DNA of 29,615 nucleotides, from IMG/VR virus record IMGVR_UViG_2654587686_000021, positions 1-29,615 of that record; one strand, written 5' to 3'. A program made the position numbers and the translations under genes. Under the pieces are notes generated by a model that worked only from the letters and a program-made list of their open reading frames with translations, was not told the DNA's origin and did no database searches. Within the stretch, counting starts at the first letter, position 1. The number at the start of each line of letters is the position of its first letter. This document shows positions 1,244 through 28,602 of the stretch, piece by piece. Origin of the DNA: a virus (Duplodnaviria > Heunggongvirae > Uroviricota > Caudoviricetes).

Positions 1244-2677
1244 TCAAGGCTGCCCAGTCTTACCAGCATCAGCAGAAACAGCTTTGAGGATATAGGGTTC
1301 CAGAAGTCTGGCAACGGCTTCAAATACTGGCACCACAACGGAGTTACCGAACTGCCGATATGACTGAGTATCTGAAACCGGAATACGGAATGGTTTCCCT
1401 CCAGGTTTTTCAAACCCCATAAGGCGTGCGCACTCTCGGGGAGTCAGCCTGCGTGGTCGACGAGCCTGGTTACTCTCATTCATAAAGTCAGCCTCTCCCG
1501 TTGCCATATCCCAACCACGATCAATAAGAATTTCTGATCCGTCTTTGTGATATCTGGCAGAAAGTGTGCGTGCAATGCTTTCCTTATTCTCAGGATTGAC
1601 CAACCCAAAGCCAAAACCATTCCCCTTGGCTGCATGCTTTTTGGCGTAGTTATAAAGGTACTCCCATAGTTTTGGCGTAAGTATATATTTACTGTCGACT
1701 ACAGGCTCCAGCAATTCACCAAATGATGGGCGGTGTTCCGGATAAAAACGACTGATATCACGCAAGGTAAACCCCTTGTGAATATTCAGATCTCGTCTAA
1801 ATCCGACCAGAACAATGCGTTCACGATGCTGAGGCAAAAAATGCTTCCCATCGATAATCTTTGGATCGTTTTTTCCCATTTCTGCAGCATCGGCAACTTC
1901 GTAGCCCAGCTCGTCAAGGGTCTCCATAATGACTTTGAAAGTTTTACCCTTATCATGGCTCTTCAGATTTTTGACATTTTCCAGCACAAAAATTGCCGGT
2001 TTTTTTGCTCGTATAATACGTGCCACGTCAAAAAAAAGTGTTCCTTGTGCTTCACATTCAAAACCATGCGCACGACCAAGTGAGTTTTTCTTACTAACAC
2101 CAGCAAGGCTAAATGGCTGGCACGGGAACCCCGCAAGAAGCACATCATGATCCGGCACATGCTCATCAATATATGCATAAGCATCCGTTTCCAATACATC
2201 GGTTTTATCACTCAGCGTGACTTCCCGAATATCGAGATTGAATTTATGCACCTGTTCATCGTTAAACCAGTTGGCCTTGTATGTACGCACAGCATCTTTA
2301 TTCCATTCACTGGTAAAAACACACTGGCCTCCAATGGCCTCAAAACCTTTCCGTATCCCTCCAATTCCAGCAAATAAGTCAATGAAGCGGAAAGCATATT
2401 CCGGATGGTTTGCAGGTGGTTCTGGTAGCATCTTACGCAGAAGAGACTCTTCTACTGAAGTCAACGATTTTGGTAAACACTTGCCATTAATCCAGCGGTT
2501 GATGGTTTCACGGCTCCACTCATTTTTTCCGACTTTTCTCAGTAATTCAGCCACATACTTCTGATCATAGATTTCCAGCACTTTCTCGATAAGCTTTTTA
2601 TCATTTTCCTGTCGCAGCTTTTCTTCCGCCTCGGCTTCCTTCAGCAGATGCTGTGCCAACACTTCAAATTCAGACAT
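1244..2677 (-). CDS. ecoRIIM: DNA cytosine-5 methyltransferase, Dcm/M.EcoRII family (CCWGG-specific)
   Basis: C5-MTase motifs in the translation: [10 protein letters not shown] (motif I, AdoMet binding), [11 protein letters not shown] (motif IV, catalytic Cys), ENVKNL (motif VI), [10 protein letters not shown] (motif X). Start moved from ORF-track 2719 to the ATG at 2677 (MSEFEVLAQ...), which has a GGAGGA ribosome-binding site 4 nt upstream and gives 477 aa. Confidence 0.88.
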
Positions 2678-2984
2678 AATTCCTCCAAGGGGTCTAATGG
2701 GTGAAACTCTATCACTCATTCAACCCAGAAGGAAATGTTTTATCTGGATATTTAAACAGTGACTACAACGTAATCTAGCACTGGTGATGCTTTGTTAGGC
2801 ATAGAGAATCATTCTATATACGACTAATGACAGAAAAACAGCAGACAAGTAGTTTGTTCATAAATTAACGCATACTACGTGCCTACGGTTTTCGAGACCG
2901 GTCCAATCATCAAACGAAACATAAAATTAGCTCACATTATGAGGAAAAGTATCTTTTTTGTACTATGTAAATTCAAAGGCTTAG

Positions 2985-3854
<870 letters not shown>

Positions 3855-5695: not shown

Positions 5696-6354
5696 AATTT
5701 CCCAATTCCTAAAATATGGACATCATCAGCCTTACGGGCATTCCAGGTGACAATTACATCGGTAGAGTGACGATTAACTGAGATTGCGTATGCTTCGTTA
5801 GTCGAGCCAGAAACTTTTGTGGCAAACACAGCAAACAGGACACCAAATGACTGGGGCCATTTATAGCCTGACAGCTGATAATTACCATTATTCAGTGTTA
5901 CAGCTTTGGCTGCTGCACTTGATGGAATCGTCAGCCACTGGAGTATCAACCCTCCTGGCAAAAGTTGTTTTCCGTAATAATCCCTCACCCCACTAAATGA
6001 AACCATGTCCGGTATCTGATTTTCCCCTGTGCCCACATTCCGTTTTGCCGCTTCTCCCAAACCAAGGTTTTCGAGAGCCGTTTTCACCGTGCCATCCGAT
6101 TTGATATCGCTAAACGGATTCTTGCGGCTTAACAGCAGCGCACGAAGCGCGGTAAGCAGCTGGTCATGCCGCCCCTTCTCCAGGCTGGCACCGGATGCCT
6201 CCACCACGCTGCAGAGTTCTTCCTGCAACATATCAAAGTAGTCATCATCAAGATCGGTGGCAGGTGTGCCGGTCTGGGGGTTACCACGGGTAAAACCGTT
6301 TTTACCCGCGCCGAACTTATCCTTCTGCGCGGTTTTCGTGTCTATACGATGCAT
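5692..6354 (-). CDS. Tail fibre protein (e14 StfP/YcfK-like); constant N-terminus outside and variable C-terminus inside the invertible segment
   Basis: 220-aa ORF that crosses the right inverted repeat at GLGEAAKRN. Gene order follows YmfQ-like and baseplate J-like genes, as in e14. Confidence 0.8.
6035..6065. repeat. Right inverted repeat / crossover site of the invertible segment
   Basis: Exact reverse complement of 4533..4563 (31 nt), lying inside the fibre gene. Confidence 0.8.
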
Positions 6355-24379: not shown

Positions 24380-25138
24380 TTATTTTTTCTTCTTATTTAA
24401 CTTATCTAAATTGACGGGATCTTTCCCTGTGGCAGCTAAACACCAAAAAGAATAACTCTTTTGCATGACATAGGTTCTAATTCTCTCTAATGTTTCATTA
24501 TATTTTTTCTCAACAACCTGTATCGCATGTTCAAATAAATTAATCATATCAACATGCTCGTCCTCGACACCAATCATGCTCAGTTGTTTTCTATCTGTCA
24601 CTGCTTGATAAAATGTTTTCCCATTTTTCCTTATTAGTAACAATGAAGTTTCTGCTGACTCATAGTCTTGGTTGCCGCTATGTGCTGCAAAATTATGCCT
24701 GTAGTTAATAATACAGTCATGCAACCCAAAATATTCAGAATCAAGCCAATCACGCTCCATCTTTAACTTTCTCCCTTTAGCTTCAGAGAAAGCTTTACCA
24801 TAAAACGTTAGGCTTGCCACAAATAACGCTCTAATTTCACTTGATAAATCTAGATCAAGTATATTCCCGTATAACTTGCCATCTGTCCTTAATTCGTTTC
24901 TCCCTGCCAGTTCATTAGCTATTTGGTACCACTCTTTAGCACTTTTTAAGTCCCTATGAATTAGGGACAGTGAAGATGCTCTATCGGCAATACGCCCACT
25001 CAATTTTATGCGATCTACAATTTCATTATTGAATGTATAAACCGCTTTAAATTCCCCCGTTTCGGAATCAATATAATATTCAACATCTAACCCTTCATAT
25101 GATTCACACCCGGGACCTTCTAATTTTTTTCTTTTCAT
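24380..25138 (-). CDS. Hypothetical protein (AT-rich moron between lysis cassette and packaging genes)
   Basis: 252 aa from the first ATG (ORF-track start 25162 is a TTG). No motif I recognise; AT-rich with Lys-rich termini; own terminator downstream. Confidence 0.6.
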   Translation of the reverse strand: MKRKKLEGPGCESYEGLDVEYYIDSETGEFKAVYTFNNEIVDRIKLSGRIADRASSLSLIHRDLKSAKEWYQIANELAGRNELRTDGKLYGNILDLDLSSEIRALFVASLTFYGKAFSEAKGRKLKMERDWLDSEYFGLHDCIINYRHNFAAHSGNQDYESAETSLLLIRKNGKTFYQAVTDRKQLSMIGVEDEHVDMINLFEHAIQVVEKKYNETLERIRTYVMQKSYSFWCLAATGKDPVNLDKLNKKKK

Positions 25139-25219
25139 ATAGAATATCCATATACGTTTCAATTCTCAGTCAGCATAGTAGAAAAAAAAGATGTCCAGAT
25201 CCATACATCGAAAGCAATT

Positions 25220-26162: not shown

Positions 26163-26489
26163 TTACTCCTTAGAGCCACCAAACTTATTACCGATTACTC
26201 TCATTGCAGCCCCACGAATAGCATCGACCCCGATCAGCCCAACGCCGCCACCAATGGCAACAGAAAGAGATTTAGGCCATCCGACATACTCAAGAGCGGA
26301 TGCAAAAGTCAGCGTCAGAGCACCACAGAGCAAAATCTCGAGCGTTTTTCGTTTCCAGCCACCACCACCGCCAAAATAGGCAATGCGCAAGCCAGCCATA
26401 ACGATCGACATAATCACTGCGCCCAGCGGTGTGTCTCCACGCCACCAGCTCTGGACCAACTCCAGCCAGGTATTTGGGTTATGAGGCAT
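26163..26489 (-). CDS. S: Holin, lambda S family (class I, three TM segments)
   Basis: 108 aa with three hydrophobic segments and a Gly-rich loop (AGLRIAYFGGGGGW, compare lambda S AYLRGRYNGG); directly upstream of R and Rz. Confidence 0.75.
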   Translation of the reverse strand: MPHNPNTWLELVQSWWRGDTPLGAVIMSIVMAGLRIAYFGGGGGWKRKTLEILLCGALTLTFASALEYVGWPKSLSVAIGGGVGLIGVDAIRGAAMRVIGNKFGGSKE

Positions 26490-26641
26490 TTGTAGTTATC
26501 TCTCACCTCGCTGATACAGCAGGTGCAAATTGAGGGAACATCATGTACCGCAAATCAGAAGCGGAAACATCAAAGAAGCCGAACCGATGGAGAACTGCGG
26601 AATAGGCCAGGACCAACGAATCCCCAGCCACAGAAACGACA

Positions 26642-26663
26642 AAACCCGCTCGACGGCGGGTTT
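26642..26663 (-). terminator. Hairpin plus U-rich tract in the leader upstream of the holin (candidate tR'-like late terminator)
   Basis: aaacccgc / gcgggttt stem with 6-nt loop; the minus strand continues ttttgtcgtttctg. Confidence 0.35.
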
Positions 26664-26740
26664 AAGCTGTGTGGCGAAGTAACCACTCTTAACAGATTAC
26701 AATGTTTTTTGCGGACCGCGCTAATGATTTCCTCTTTTTT

Positions 26741-26770
26741 TTGTTGTATTTTTCACACGGTTGCTAAAAT
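26741..26770 (+). promoter_or_regulatory. Candidate sigma-70 promoter for the plus-strand two-gene cassette
   Basis: ttgttg (-35-like) and taaaat (-10-like) about 17-18 bp apart, 16 nt upstream of the ATG at 26786. Weak prediction. Confidence 0.2.
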
Positions 26771-26785
26771 TATTTCGGATCGATA

Positions 26786-27727
26786 ATGAGTACAGAAAAT
26801 AAGAATAAAACCAGGCGAGTGAGAGTTGGTTTTTTCACTGGTAATGGAAGCAAAAAAGATGGCACATCTGCTGCAAAACTAGCCTTTGAGCAAATGACCA
26901 CAGCAGATACTGTAACTTTTCCAATAACTTACACAACAGACACCCCAAGTCGAGGGTTAAAGTTAGTTATTCTTCAAAAAGATACCACACTGCAATGTTA
27001 CTTTGGTTACGTATCGTGGAGAAGGGAATGCCTACTACCGTTCATCGAGGATGCTACAGGTAGTGAGAGAACAATTCCTTTAAATGATAAAGATTCTGTA
27101 GTTGAAAGAACATATTTTATCTATTACTACGAAACGGACTTATTAGCTATGACCCTCAACCATATAGGGCCCAAAGTAAATGATCTGGCATTCATTTTGT
27201 ATAACAAAACTGATTTAAAAAGCGTCACTTTTGAAGCCATTTGGAAACAAGAGAGCATGAAGGAACTGCTTGAGGACGGAAATATCCTACGTAGTTTCGA
27301 TCTTATAGTTGCTGCTCCAAGAAACTTTAACAAAGCTAATTATAAGATTAAAAACCCTTTAGCTAATGAAATTATTGACATGGTTGTTGGTATGGGCGGG
27401 TCGCATCTAAGATTAAATATGCGAGGTCGGATTCGCCCGAAAAAACAAGGGTTTAACTATCTAAAAACTTCTGTCACCGATGCTATTAAGGAACTACTTG
27501 AACTTTTTCCAAAAGGTTCTGGAGGTCTAAAAATTAAAAAAATTGATGTAACAGAGCCATCCAATAGAACGCCCAAAAGTCTACTTGACCAAGTATTGGT
27601 CAGTACAAAGACAATCATTGTCAAAAGCGGTTATCCATCCGATTCTGATATCAGAACGGCGATGATATCTGCTAAAATTGATAACGCGAACTATCTTGCA
27701 CAGTATGAGCTCGCTAGCAGAGACTAA
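26786..27727 (+). CDS. Hypothetical soluble protein, first gene of AT-rich two-gene cassette (candidate sensor of an abortive-infection/defence module)
   Basis: 313 aa with no recognisable catalytic motif; AT-rich codon usage unlike flanking phage genes; followed 21 nt later by a membrane-protein gene with a strong ribosome-binding site. Confidence 0.6.
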   Translation: MSTENKNKTRRVRVGFFTGNGSKKDGTSAAKLAFEQMTTADTVTFPITYTTDTPSRGLKLVILQKDTTLQCYFGYVSWRRECLLPFIEDATGSERTIPLNDKDSVVERTYFIYYYETDLLAMTLNHIGPKVNDLAFILYNKTDLKSVTFEAIWKQESMKELLEDGNILRSFDLIVAAPRNFNKANYKIKNPLANEIIDMVVGMGGSHLRLNMRGRIRPKKQGFNYLKTSVTDAIKELLELFPKGSGGLKIKKIDVTEPSNRTPKSLLDQVLVSTKTIIVKSGYPSDSDIRTAMISAKIDNANYLAQYELASRD

Positions 27728-27748
27728 TAACCAAGCATGGAGGACACA

Positions 27749-28198
27749 ATGAGAGAATTAGCCACTTTTCTCTGGAAATGCGTCCTCTGGATTCTGTTGA
27801 CCTATGCAGCGACAAAACTGTTTAAACCGATGAAGCATGCTGACGTACTCACAACAGCGGGGGTGCTCTCGACTATATCAGGCATCCTGTTTGGTTTTGT
27901 TCTGGCTGCAATATCTATATTTAGTAGTGCAAACAGCGATAAGGAAGGAGCAATTAATGCCCTTAAGCAAAACAACGTGTTACCAACTCTGGTAAATAGA
28001 TTACTTTCAACAGGGTTAACTCTCATCGTCGCATGTATATTTCCATTGATAGCGATGTTTCTACCTGATGATGTTATTGTTGCGGGCAAACCTATTGATT
28101 TCCTGTTCATACTGTTAGGCTTATCCTCCCTTATAATTTCGCTATATACCTTCGGAAGGTGTTGGTTAGTGTTACGAAAAATCTTCCCCCACTTGTGA
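27749..28198 (+). CDS. Small polytopic membrane protein (four predicted TM helices), second gene of the cassette
   Basis: GGAGGA ribosome-binding site 4-5 nt upstream of ATG 27749 (ORF-track start 27737 is 12 nt further up). Hydrophobic segments FLWKCVLWILLTYAATKLF, VLTTAGVLSTISGILFGFVLAAISIFSS, LLSTGLTLIVACIFPLIAMFL, IDFLFILLGLSSLIISLYTF. Confidence 0.65.
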   Translation: MRELATFLWKCVLWILLTYAATKLFKPMKHADVLTTAGVLSTISGILFGFVLAAISIFSSANSDKEGAINALKQNNVLPTLVNRLLSTGLTLIVACIFPLIAMFLPDDVIVAGKPIDFLFILLGLSSLIISLYTFGRCWLVLRKIFPHL

Positions 28199-28226
28199 CA
28201 GGTTGGCCTCATATGGGGCCAACCTG
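28199..28226. terminator. 10-bp perfect hairpin between convergent cassette and Q genes
   Basis: caggttggcc tcatatgg ggccaacctg, directly after the cassette stop codon (28196-28198) and before the Q stop (28234). Confidence 0.4.
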
Positions 28227-28233
28227 TGCAACC

Positions 28234-28602
28234 CTAAGCGTCCATTTCAAGGTTAAAATCCAACATTGAAAGGCAACCATCAATAAATCCTTCGGCTAGT
28301 TGTATTTCTATGCGTACCAATTTTTCATCCTTTCCACGCACCTTTGCAATCTTACGCTTGGATATTCTGTATAAATAATGTGCCACAAGCAGCGAGTGCT
28401 CATCTGGCTTTTTTTGCTTTAGACGAGCAAGACAACCTTCAATAATTAATGCATCACTATCTGAACAAGCCTGACGTGTTTTGCTTGTGTAGGGAAGAAG
28501 CCCCTTAAACCCAGCAGCTATAGGCGAATAGTCTACTCCAGAACTATCACTCGCCGCCCATGCTCCCCAACGCTCCAGAACCATCTGAATATCACGCATC
28601 AA
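28234..28602 (-). CDS. Late-gene antitermination protein Q (QuuD-like)
   Basis: MRDIQMVLERWGAWAA...IAAGFKGLL N-terminus matches prophage Q antiterminators (QuuD-like) as I recall them; lies between the nin region and the lysis genes. Confidence 0.8.
   Translation of the reverse strand: MMRDIQMVLERWGAWAASDSSGVDYSPIAAGFKGLLPYTSKTRQACSDSDALIIEGCLARLKQKKPDEHSLLVAHYLYRISKRKIAKVRGKDEKLVRIEIQLAEGFIDGCLSMLDFNLEMDA

Follow-up and report, generated by a model that had tools for sequence, protein, structure and literature searches.

An antisense two-gene cassette between the Q and holin genes of a lambdoid prophage as a predicted, divergent RexAB-type phage-exclusion module

In a lambdoid prophage of 29,615 nucleotides (IMG/VR virus record IMGVR_UViG_2654587686_000021, the whole of which we call the window), two genes, here ORF1 and ORF2, run antisense through the interval between the antiterminator gene Q and the holin gene, and the question is what such a pair does there. 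An earlier note, made from the sequence alone, had taken the pair for a module resembling RexA and RexB of phage lambda, the first abortive-infection system to be described. Our comparisons indicate that ORF1 is very probably a remote homologue of lambda RexA and ORF2 one of lambda RexB, and this homology is well supported because two proteins independently point to both partners of the system in the same gene order. By analogy, we consider it fairly probable that the cassette is a prophage-borne module of the RexAB type, with two genes that together bring about phage exclusion (abortive infection), and that it belongs to a divergent and uncharacterised family. That family consists of DUF6731 proteins (Pfam PF20505), among which ORF1 is placed by profile, and of a conserved partner with four transmembrane (TM) helices encoded directly downstream.

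ORF2 is, like RexB, a protein of the ~145-amino acid (aa) type with four predicted TM helices. Its AlphaFold (AF2) model has a predicted local distance difference test (pLDDT) score of 80 and four long helices, with which the hydropathy peaks agree. For the comparison with RexB, the ORFs downstream of RexA in IMG/VR loci were taken as RexB sequences, and 11 distinct ones were aligned. In hhalign, the ORF2 family matched this alignment with a probability of 86% (E 5e-6), residues 29-94 of ORF2 lying on residues 38-98 of RexB in a region that comprises TM2, the loop and TM3. With two further partners of distant DUF6731 proteins added the match rose to 92.4% (E 5e-7), and seven such distant partners alone reached 96.5% (E 9e-10) over 98 columns, while the close ORF2 family and the distant partners align with each other at 99.6% (E 3e-24). 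The ORF2-RexB score was 39.9, against a maximum of 23.2 in 100 shuffles that kept the TM/loop architecture and 16.7 for the reversed profile. The stretch most conserved across ORF2, the distant partners and RexB is TM2 with the loop that follows it. Profile-profile comparison thus argues for homology between ORF2 and RexB. In a Foldseek search of the viral structure database BFVD, the second match of the ORF2 model was a 165-aa protein of mycobacteriophage Sbash (E 0.027, TM-score 0.52), which, judging by its length, would be gp31, the RexB-like effector of the experimentally tested Sbash gp30/31 pair; the top matches of the ORF1 and ORF2 models both came from the uncultured phage ctylc9.

The link between ORF1 and RexA runs through DUF6731. 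A relative 61% identical to ORF1 (P0022) scores 32.7 bits against the PF20505 model, whose cut-off is 27, more distant relatives score 38-56 bits, and the ORF1-family profile aligns with distant DUF6731 proteins at a probability of 99.9% (E 1e-35). The AlphaFold model of ORF1, built from a 30-sequence alignment, is usable (pLDDT 78.6, predicted TM-score 0.77). Its predicted secondary structure is that published for RexA, a split globular domain with an inserted domain of four strands and four helices, and ORF1 is therefore predicted to adopt the RexA/RdgC fold, in which the split globular domain is interrupted by a beta-alpha dimerisation domain. An 81-sequence DUF6731 alignment was then set against a 29-sequence RexA alignment enriched with RexA relatives of 23-30% identity from IMG/VR. 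The two align over 253 colinear columns, nearly the full length of both, with a score of 43, as compared with 15 for the reversed profile and 26.5 for the best of 120 local or block shuffles. Common to both is a motif E-x-D...GP-x3-DL (YYETDLLAMTLNHIGPKVNDLAFIL against FVEGDTIGFARTVFGPTTSDLTDFL) as well as a second one, FEAIW against IEPLM, that adjoins the hinge of RexA. The rexA-then-rexB order on one strand is likewise kept.

Several observations weigh against this identification or against reading a function from it. ORF1 matched no family in an hmmscan of Pfam-A at E<=1 and so did not reach the RexA model (PF15969), and ORF2 gave no match to the RexB model (PF15968) at E<=10. Neither protein had a match in PADLOC-DB 2.0.0 at E<=1, and the NCBIfam scan was informative for neither. 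The hhalign probability between DUF6731 and RexA, 76-79% (E 2e-5), lies below the customary line of 90-95%, the sequence identity to RexA is about 13-15%, and Foldseek searches of both models against BFVD did not recover lambda RexA or lambda RexB. The lambda pair lies downstream of cI in the immunity operon, whereas the cassette runs antisense in the interval that separates Q from the probable late promoter, and the only promoter that can be proposed for it is a weak candidate. Literature searches for DUF6731 and for PF20505 found no paper in the library searched, and the function proposed for the family is drawn by analogy. The lambda Rex proteins, moreover, have non-defence roles too, so that homology leaves the function unfixed.

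The distant partner downstream of the DUF6731 gene in locus L018 came to E 0.13 and 13 bits against PF15968, where the cut-off is 27 bits, and the Pfam, PADLOC and NCBIfam scans returned for ORF2 only weak, noise-level matches to membrane families. The ORF1-family profile found no match among all PDB sequences at E<=10 (hmmsearch). In PHROGs, the two proteins fall in two families of unknown function, that of ORF2 being phrog_8552. Profiles of the cassette families were not significant against single sequences of lambda RexA, lambda RexB, Sbash gp30 or Sbash gp31; significance came only with the diverse RexA and RexB profiles built from IMG/VR loci. Because it matches neither PF15969 nor PF15968 and does not lie in an immunity operon, we do not file the cassette as lambda-type RexAB. 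We regard it as a new, divergent relative of RexAB at a new locus, outside lambda-type RexAB proper, and it brings no new component or architecture.

Set beside these results, the claims that the earlier note made about the proteins largely stand. The RexA/RexB-like pair is supported at the level of remote homology for both proteins, the four TM helices of the second protein agree with the four long hydrophobic helices seen in model and hydropathy, and the faint resemblance to RexB suggested for the second TM region coincides with the core of the alignment, TM2 and its following loop. That the family is new agrees with the failure of both proteins to reach the RexA and RexB Pfam models, PADLOC or NCBIfam. 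The profile searches it had suggested led to no assignment to an unrelated, non-defence function, and the pairing of a metabolic enzyme with a transporter was rejected, no enzyme or transporter family having been matched. The Foldseek comparison, also suggested there, bore fruit in part, with the Sbash protein as second match of ORF2 and the lambda proteins absent from the BFVD matches.

Given an identity to RexA and RexB of only ~13-16%, the likeness might be convergent or confined to the fold. The cassette would then combine a DNA-binding protein of the RdgC/RexA fold with a small membrane protein in some unrelated cargo function, for example surface or envelope modification or superinfection exclusion at the level of entry. 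RexA-fold proteins with other roles do exist, RdgC and kinetochore proteins among them, and four-helix membrane proteins are common. We nevertheless hold this explanation to be unlikely, since both partners indicate, each on its own, one known system in one order, and since their scores lie far above nulls that preserve the architecture.

The two-gene unit is not a chance arrangement, because it recurs in 73 of 5426 complete Escherichia coli genomes (~1.3%) and in many other Enterobacterales. In E. coli, the distribution is patchy, the 1.8-kb region is found at >=99% identity, and the annotation of both genes is always hypothetical protein; in phage cdtI the pair is orf54/orf53. Protein searches found relatives with 44-86% identity to ORF1 and 44-88% to ORF2 in Citrobacter, Serratia, Yersinia, Hafnia, Salmonella, Enterobacter, Klebsiella, Pantoea, Pectobacterium, Proteus, Providencia and Xenorhabdus, and the contigs that yielded an ORF1 and an ORF2 relative were often equal in length. 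A profile search of genome contigs yielded 3 loci. At the loci read in Yersinia, E. coli and Pectobacterium, the pair was in every case antisense, with a PF06530 Q gene on one side and the lysis genes on the other, and this position is constant although the lysis and head modules vary.

A profile search that ran exhaustively through 1.84 billion cluster representatives returned only 170 relatives of ORF1, mostly of 280-320 aa, and most of those scanned match DUF6731. A small gene encoding hydrophobic helices lies directly 3' of every DUF6731 gene examined, adjacent or overlapping, at 15+ loci. All distant DUF6731 members that were looked up are followed immediately by a gene of 117-152 aa, and the small downstream gene is also present in an integrase-adjacent metagenomic prophage. 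The products of these distant downstream genes carry three or four hydrophobic helices and have in common with ORF2 the TM2 motif (S/A)-G-x-L-(F/L)-G-F...A-(A/S)-(I/L)-(S/T). The pair is always found in accessory slots of prophages, be it the Q-to-holin interval, a site beside an integrase or the neighbourhood of the immunity region, and it moves as a unit between such slots of unrelated prophages.

Some occurrences differ from the usual context or labelling. In Vibrio phage 10N.286.54.F4_PE001 (PQ189356; locus L067, 1389-2896), a DUF6731 homologue of 34% identity and a downstream gene of 150 aa adjoin the integrase of a non-tailed prophage of the Vinavirales, which implies that the pair moves between viral realms. 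The sole differing context within the Enterobacterales is that of Xenorhabdus sp. PB62.4 (L008, 7229-8632), where the pair is not between Q and the holin and follows tail sheath and tube genes and a gene for a PA-IL lectin. A full-length copy of the cassette is found together with Q on the 100.8-kb E. coli plasmid record NZ_CP104632.1 (78549-80349), which may be a phage-plasmid or carry a prophage. ORF1 homologues of 45% identity are labelled 'portal (connector) protein' in the records of Escherichia phages vB_EcoS-733R5 and vB_EcoS-716R3 (ON470608.1, 30277-31179, and ON470622.1, 15473-16375), and this label is probably a mis-annotation.

At the locus itself (Table 1), the window is organised as a lambdoid prophage with its genes on the minus strand, in the order DUF968, Q antiterminator, holin, endolysin, spanin, HNH, terminase and onward. 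ORF calls, GC content and the PF06530 and PF05106 matches bear out what the earlier note had reported here, namely two AT-rich plus-strand genes, 21 nt apart (from the stop codon of ORF1 to the ATG of ORF2 at 27749), lying antisense between Q and the holin, the second with a strong GGAGGA ribosome-binding site. This ATG gives the 149 aa of the RefSeq protein; with a start at the ATG further upstream, at 27737, the protein would have 153 aa. The contrast in composition drawn by that note was somewhat too sharp. The cassette has 39.1% GC (37.8% in ORF1, 41.3% in ORF2), and the phage backbone is only moderately GC-rich, since bases 1-24300 have 52.1% and the holin gene 52.6%; the figure for Q is 43%. 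Rfam scans gave no match, either for the whole window or for the cassette region. A second AT-rich cargo gene (35% GC; 24380-25162) is found on the minus strand, that of the late genes, with the spanin genes on one side and the HNH/terminase genes on the other; its 260-aa product belongs to phrog_8440 and has no meaningful match in Pfam, PADLOC, NCBIfam or PDB sequences.

Table 1. Coordinates of the cassette, its flanks and the equivalent slot in phage SfII (window positions unless stated otherwise)
Feature	Position	Strand	Description	Source
Holin	26163-26489	minus	PF05106	
Conserved backbone block	26641-26740	minus	~100 nt; holds intrinsic terminator 26663-26642	terminator scan
Candidate weak sigma-70 promoter	26741-26770	+	TTGTTG, 18 nt, TAAAAT	read from sequence
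ORF1	26786-27727	+	313 aa, soluble, basic (pI 9.3), DUF6731-family by profile	
ORF2 ribosome-binding site	27740-27745	+	GGAGGA, 3 nt short of ATG 27749	read in sequence
ORF2	27749-28198	+	149 aa, four hydrophobic helices	ORF; RefSeq WP_001208502.1
Hairpin	28199-28226		between convergent stop codons of ORF2 and Q	
Q antiterminator	28234-28602	minus	PF06530	
SfII pair	1582-3196 of NC_021857 (L065)		slot equivalent to window 26741-28233	

The cassette had also been described as flanked by two hairpins, and these fared differently. The one on the Q side is indeed a perfect 10-bp stem, which extends further (-27.3 kcal/mol) and has a U-tract on neither strand. Hairpins of unrelated sequence occupy the ORF2-Q junction in four of the five cassette lineages checked, Yersinia included, and the hairpin is likely a bidirectional insulator or terminator. 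The hairpin at 26642-26663 on the holin side is equally real, with its U-tract on the minus strand, so that it reads as a minus-strand intrinsic terminator; its proposed role as a flank of the cassette did not hold. As a terminator of the cassette it was rejected, lying upstream of ORF1, on the other strand and within the phage backbone.

The conserved block that contains this terminator matches many lambdoid phages. In PhiR49_2, a phage with a related Q but without the cassette, the equivalent block starts directly at the Q stop codon, and we therefore take the hairpin to be a phage terminator and not a cassette boundary. In Shigella phage SfII, the block stands between a different antisense cassette and the holin. 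Every cassette lineage (E. coli, Yersinia, Pectobacterium, Citrobacter and Xenorhabdus) has kept the core of the block, CATTAGCGCGGTCCGCAAAAA...TGTTAAGAGTGGT, followed by the terminator, upstream of ORF1, while the cassette proteins diverged down to 44% identity; the block has no Rfam match. Since the canonical arrangement after a Q gene is pR', then a pause element and a terminator (Yin et al., bioRxiv 10.1101/651190), the block is probably the Q-controlled pR'/tR' short-RNA unit and its terminator probably tR'. The block bounds the insertion slot on the side of the holin and lies outside the cassette. If it is pR'/tR', the cassette has probably been inserted between Q and the promoter that Q targets, and late transcription probably starts beyond the cassette instead of running antisense across it. 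The statement that the cassette opposes late transcription would therefore be right as to the strand and probably wrong as to the transcript. Between the block and the start codon of ORF1 only ~45 nt remain, which are AT-rich. A sigma-70 consensus scan upstream of ORF1 called no promoter, TTGTTG-18-TAAAAT falling below its threshold, and the stretch equivalent to the candidate promoter region varies between lineages.

Further genes are found in and near the same interval elsewhere. In two Pectobacterium prophages (L006, 6843-7691; L007, 2852-3712), an Endonuclease_NS gene (PF01223) lies between the cassette and the holins and is further cargo in the Q-to-lysis interval. An E. coli prophage (GCA_040417015.1; L005) that carries a 44%-identical version of the cassette has, beside its lysis genes, a gene (5792-6085) for a protein of the Acb2/Tad1-hairpin family (PF24729, an anti-defence family).

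The position next to Q bears on whether the pair might serve the life cycle of its own prophage, by tuning lysogeny and lysis or by protecting phage or host proteins from proteolysis. Lambda RexB inhibits ClpP-dependent degradation, and the cassette is wedged between Q and the probable late promoter. In addition, lambda RexA, a non-specific binder of DNA, shifts the CI/Cro switch toward lytic growth independently of RexB (PMC11077077). However, the pair is detached from the repressor region and is found as well beside integrases and in a Vinavirales prophage with unrelated regulation, and such detached and varied contexts argue for an autonomous cargo function. The slot is, besides, shared with a candidate defence pair in SfII. 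A role in the life cycle therefore seems to us quite improbable.

Under the preferred reading, that of a RexAB-type exclusion module, the pair would work by analogy with lambda RexAB, Sbash gp30/31, CarolAnn gp44/43 and P. putida RexABpp (PMC12894663, PMC6426596). The cassette would probably be transcribed in the lysogen from its own weak candidate promoter, insulated from Q by the convergent hairpin and situated upstream of the late transcription unit, not inside it. ORF1 would act as a cytoplasmic sensor or activator, probably dimeric and DNA-binding, that upon infection by another phage activates ORF2 in the inner membrane. ORF2, as the effector, would dissipate the membrane potential or permeabilise the membrane, and the resulting damage would arrest growth and abort the infection.

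The wiring could also be reversed, as reported for Butters gp30/31, a Rex-like pair (PMC12894663), with ORF1 as the growth-arresting effector that ORF2 sequesters until infection releases it. The homology found fits the lambda and the Butters type alike. Yet in four of the five Rex-like systems described the membrane protein is the effector (PMC12894663), and the conservation of TM2 and its loop is more in keeping with an effector or gating element than with a passive anchor, which leaves the reversed arrangement a slim prospect. That the cassette at present has no function and is carried along silent or decaying, as its weak promoter and weak ORF1 ribosome-binding site in the window might suggest, is hardly credible, given that both ORFs are intact and 99-100% conserved across the 73 E. 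coli genomes and that in other genera, even where identity falls to 44%, they keep their full length and many invariant residues. A role in phage exclusion is thus the most likely prediction, by analogy, for the RexAB-type cassette.

We put forward more tentatively, as possible but not yet probable, that DUF6731 and its partner form a large and unrecognised branch of the RexAB superfamily, a self-contained prophage cargo that crosses viral realms from the lambdoid Caudoviricetes to the Vinavirales. If the branch is what it seems, it would be, released from the repressor operon, a stand-alone sensor-channel defence with triggers and targets unlike those of lambda Rex, and the residues that RexB and the partner family have in common (TM2 and loop, including the G-x-L/I-x-x-x-x-A-A and K-x-x-G-Y/H/L-Y-like stretch) would pinpoint the gating element and open the 70-year-old Rex mechanism to test by comparison. 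The gap from Q to pR' would then be a general hotspot for defence cassettes, in which PDC-M53 of SfII would be a second occupant, alike in architecture. The family escapes current tools, the Pfam models of RexA and RexB and PADLOC all missing it. It is also common enough to count, since ~1.3% of complete E. coli genomes carry it, as do prophages of Yersinia, Serratia, Citrobacter, Pectobacterium, Xenorhabdus, Vibrio and others. Only five Rex-like systems have been described (PMC12894663, a 2026 paper). A second, very divergent RexA/RexB pair in E. coli means that genetics and phage panels are readily usable, and comparison with the cassette shows which RexA and RexB residues survive divergence.

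Among known systems, lambda RexA/RexB (PF15969, PF15968; PDB 8TWQ) is alike in being prophage-borne, in encoding a soluble protein of ~280-310 aa followed by a four-helix protein of ~145 aa, and in that profile-profile comparison aligns the two cassette families with RexA and RexB, though below the customary probability line in the case of RexA. It is unlike in that identity is below 16% and the cassette proteins reach neither Pfam model. As the earlier note had pointed out, the locus also differs from that of lambda in not being beside the repressor; in related prophages the cassette is at least ~5 kb from the repressor region, and its regulation is presumably independent of the repressor promoter. 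RexABpp of Pseudomonas putida prophage P1 (PP_5643/PP_5644) lies, unlike the cassette, near a CI-like repressor, and HHpred found no link of PP_5644 to RexB (PMC12894663), whereas the partner family of the cassette does align with RexB. Gp30/gp31 of mycobacteriophage Sbash and gp44/gp43 of Gordonia phage CarolAnn are also exclusion pairs of a soluble and a four-TM protein expressed from the prophage (PMC6426596, PMC6426606), and the Sbash pair, just after the lysis cassette, is likewise not beside the repressor. These phages differ in their actinobacterial hosts and in gp30 itself, which has 372 aa and is described with a DUF4747 motif, and ORF1 and ORF2 showed no significant profile match to Sbash gp30 and gp31.

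A parallel in position is PDC-M53, a candidate defence system of PADLOC, which in SfII fills the very same antisense slot, from Q to the conserved post-Q block. Its architecture is that of the cassette, a soluble protein with a protein of four hydrophobic helices: SfII_50 (340 aa, soluble) and SfII_49 (194 aa) match PDC-M53A and PDC-M53B at E 2e-32 and 3e-54, respectively. In a single-sequence-to-profile comparison they showed no sequence similarity to ORF1/ORF2 or to RexA/RexB, and with no sequence link the SfII pair was rejected as a relative of the cassette. Its presence supports the slot as a place of exchange, and it appears that lambdoid prophages swap defence-like cargo in the stretch that separates Q from the late promoter.

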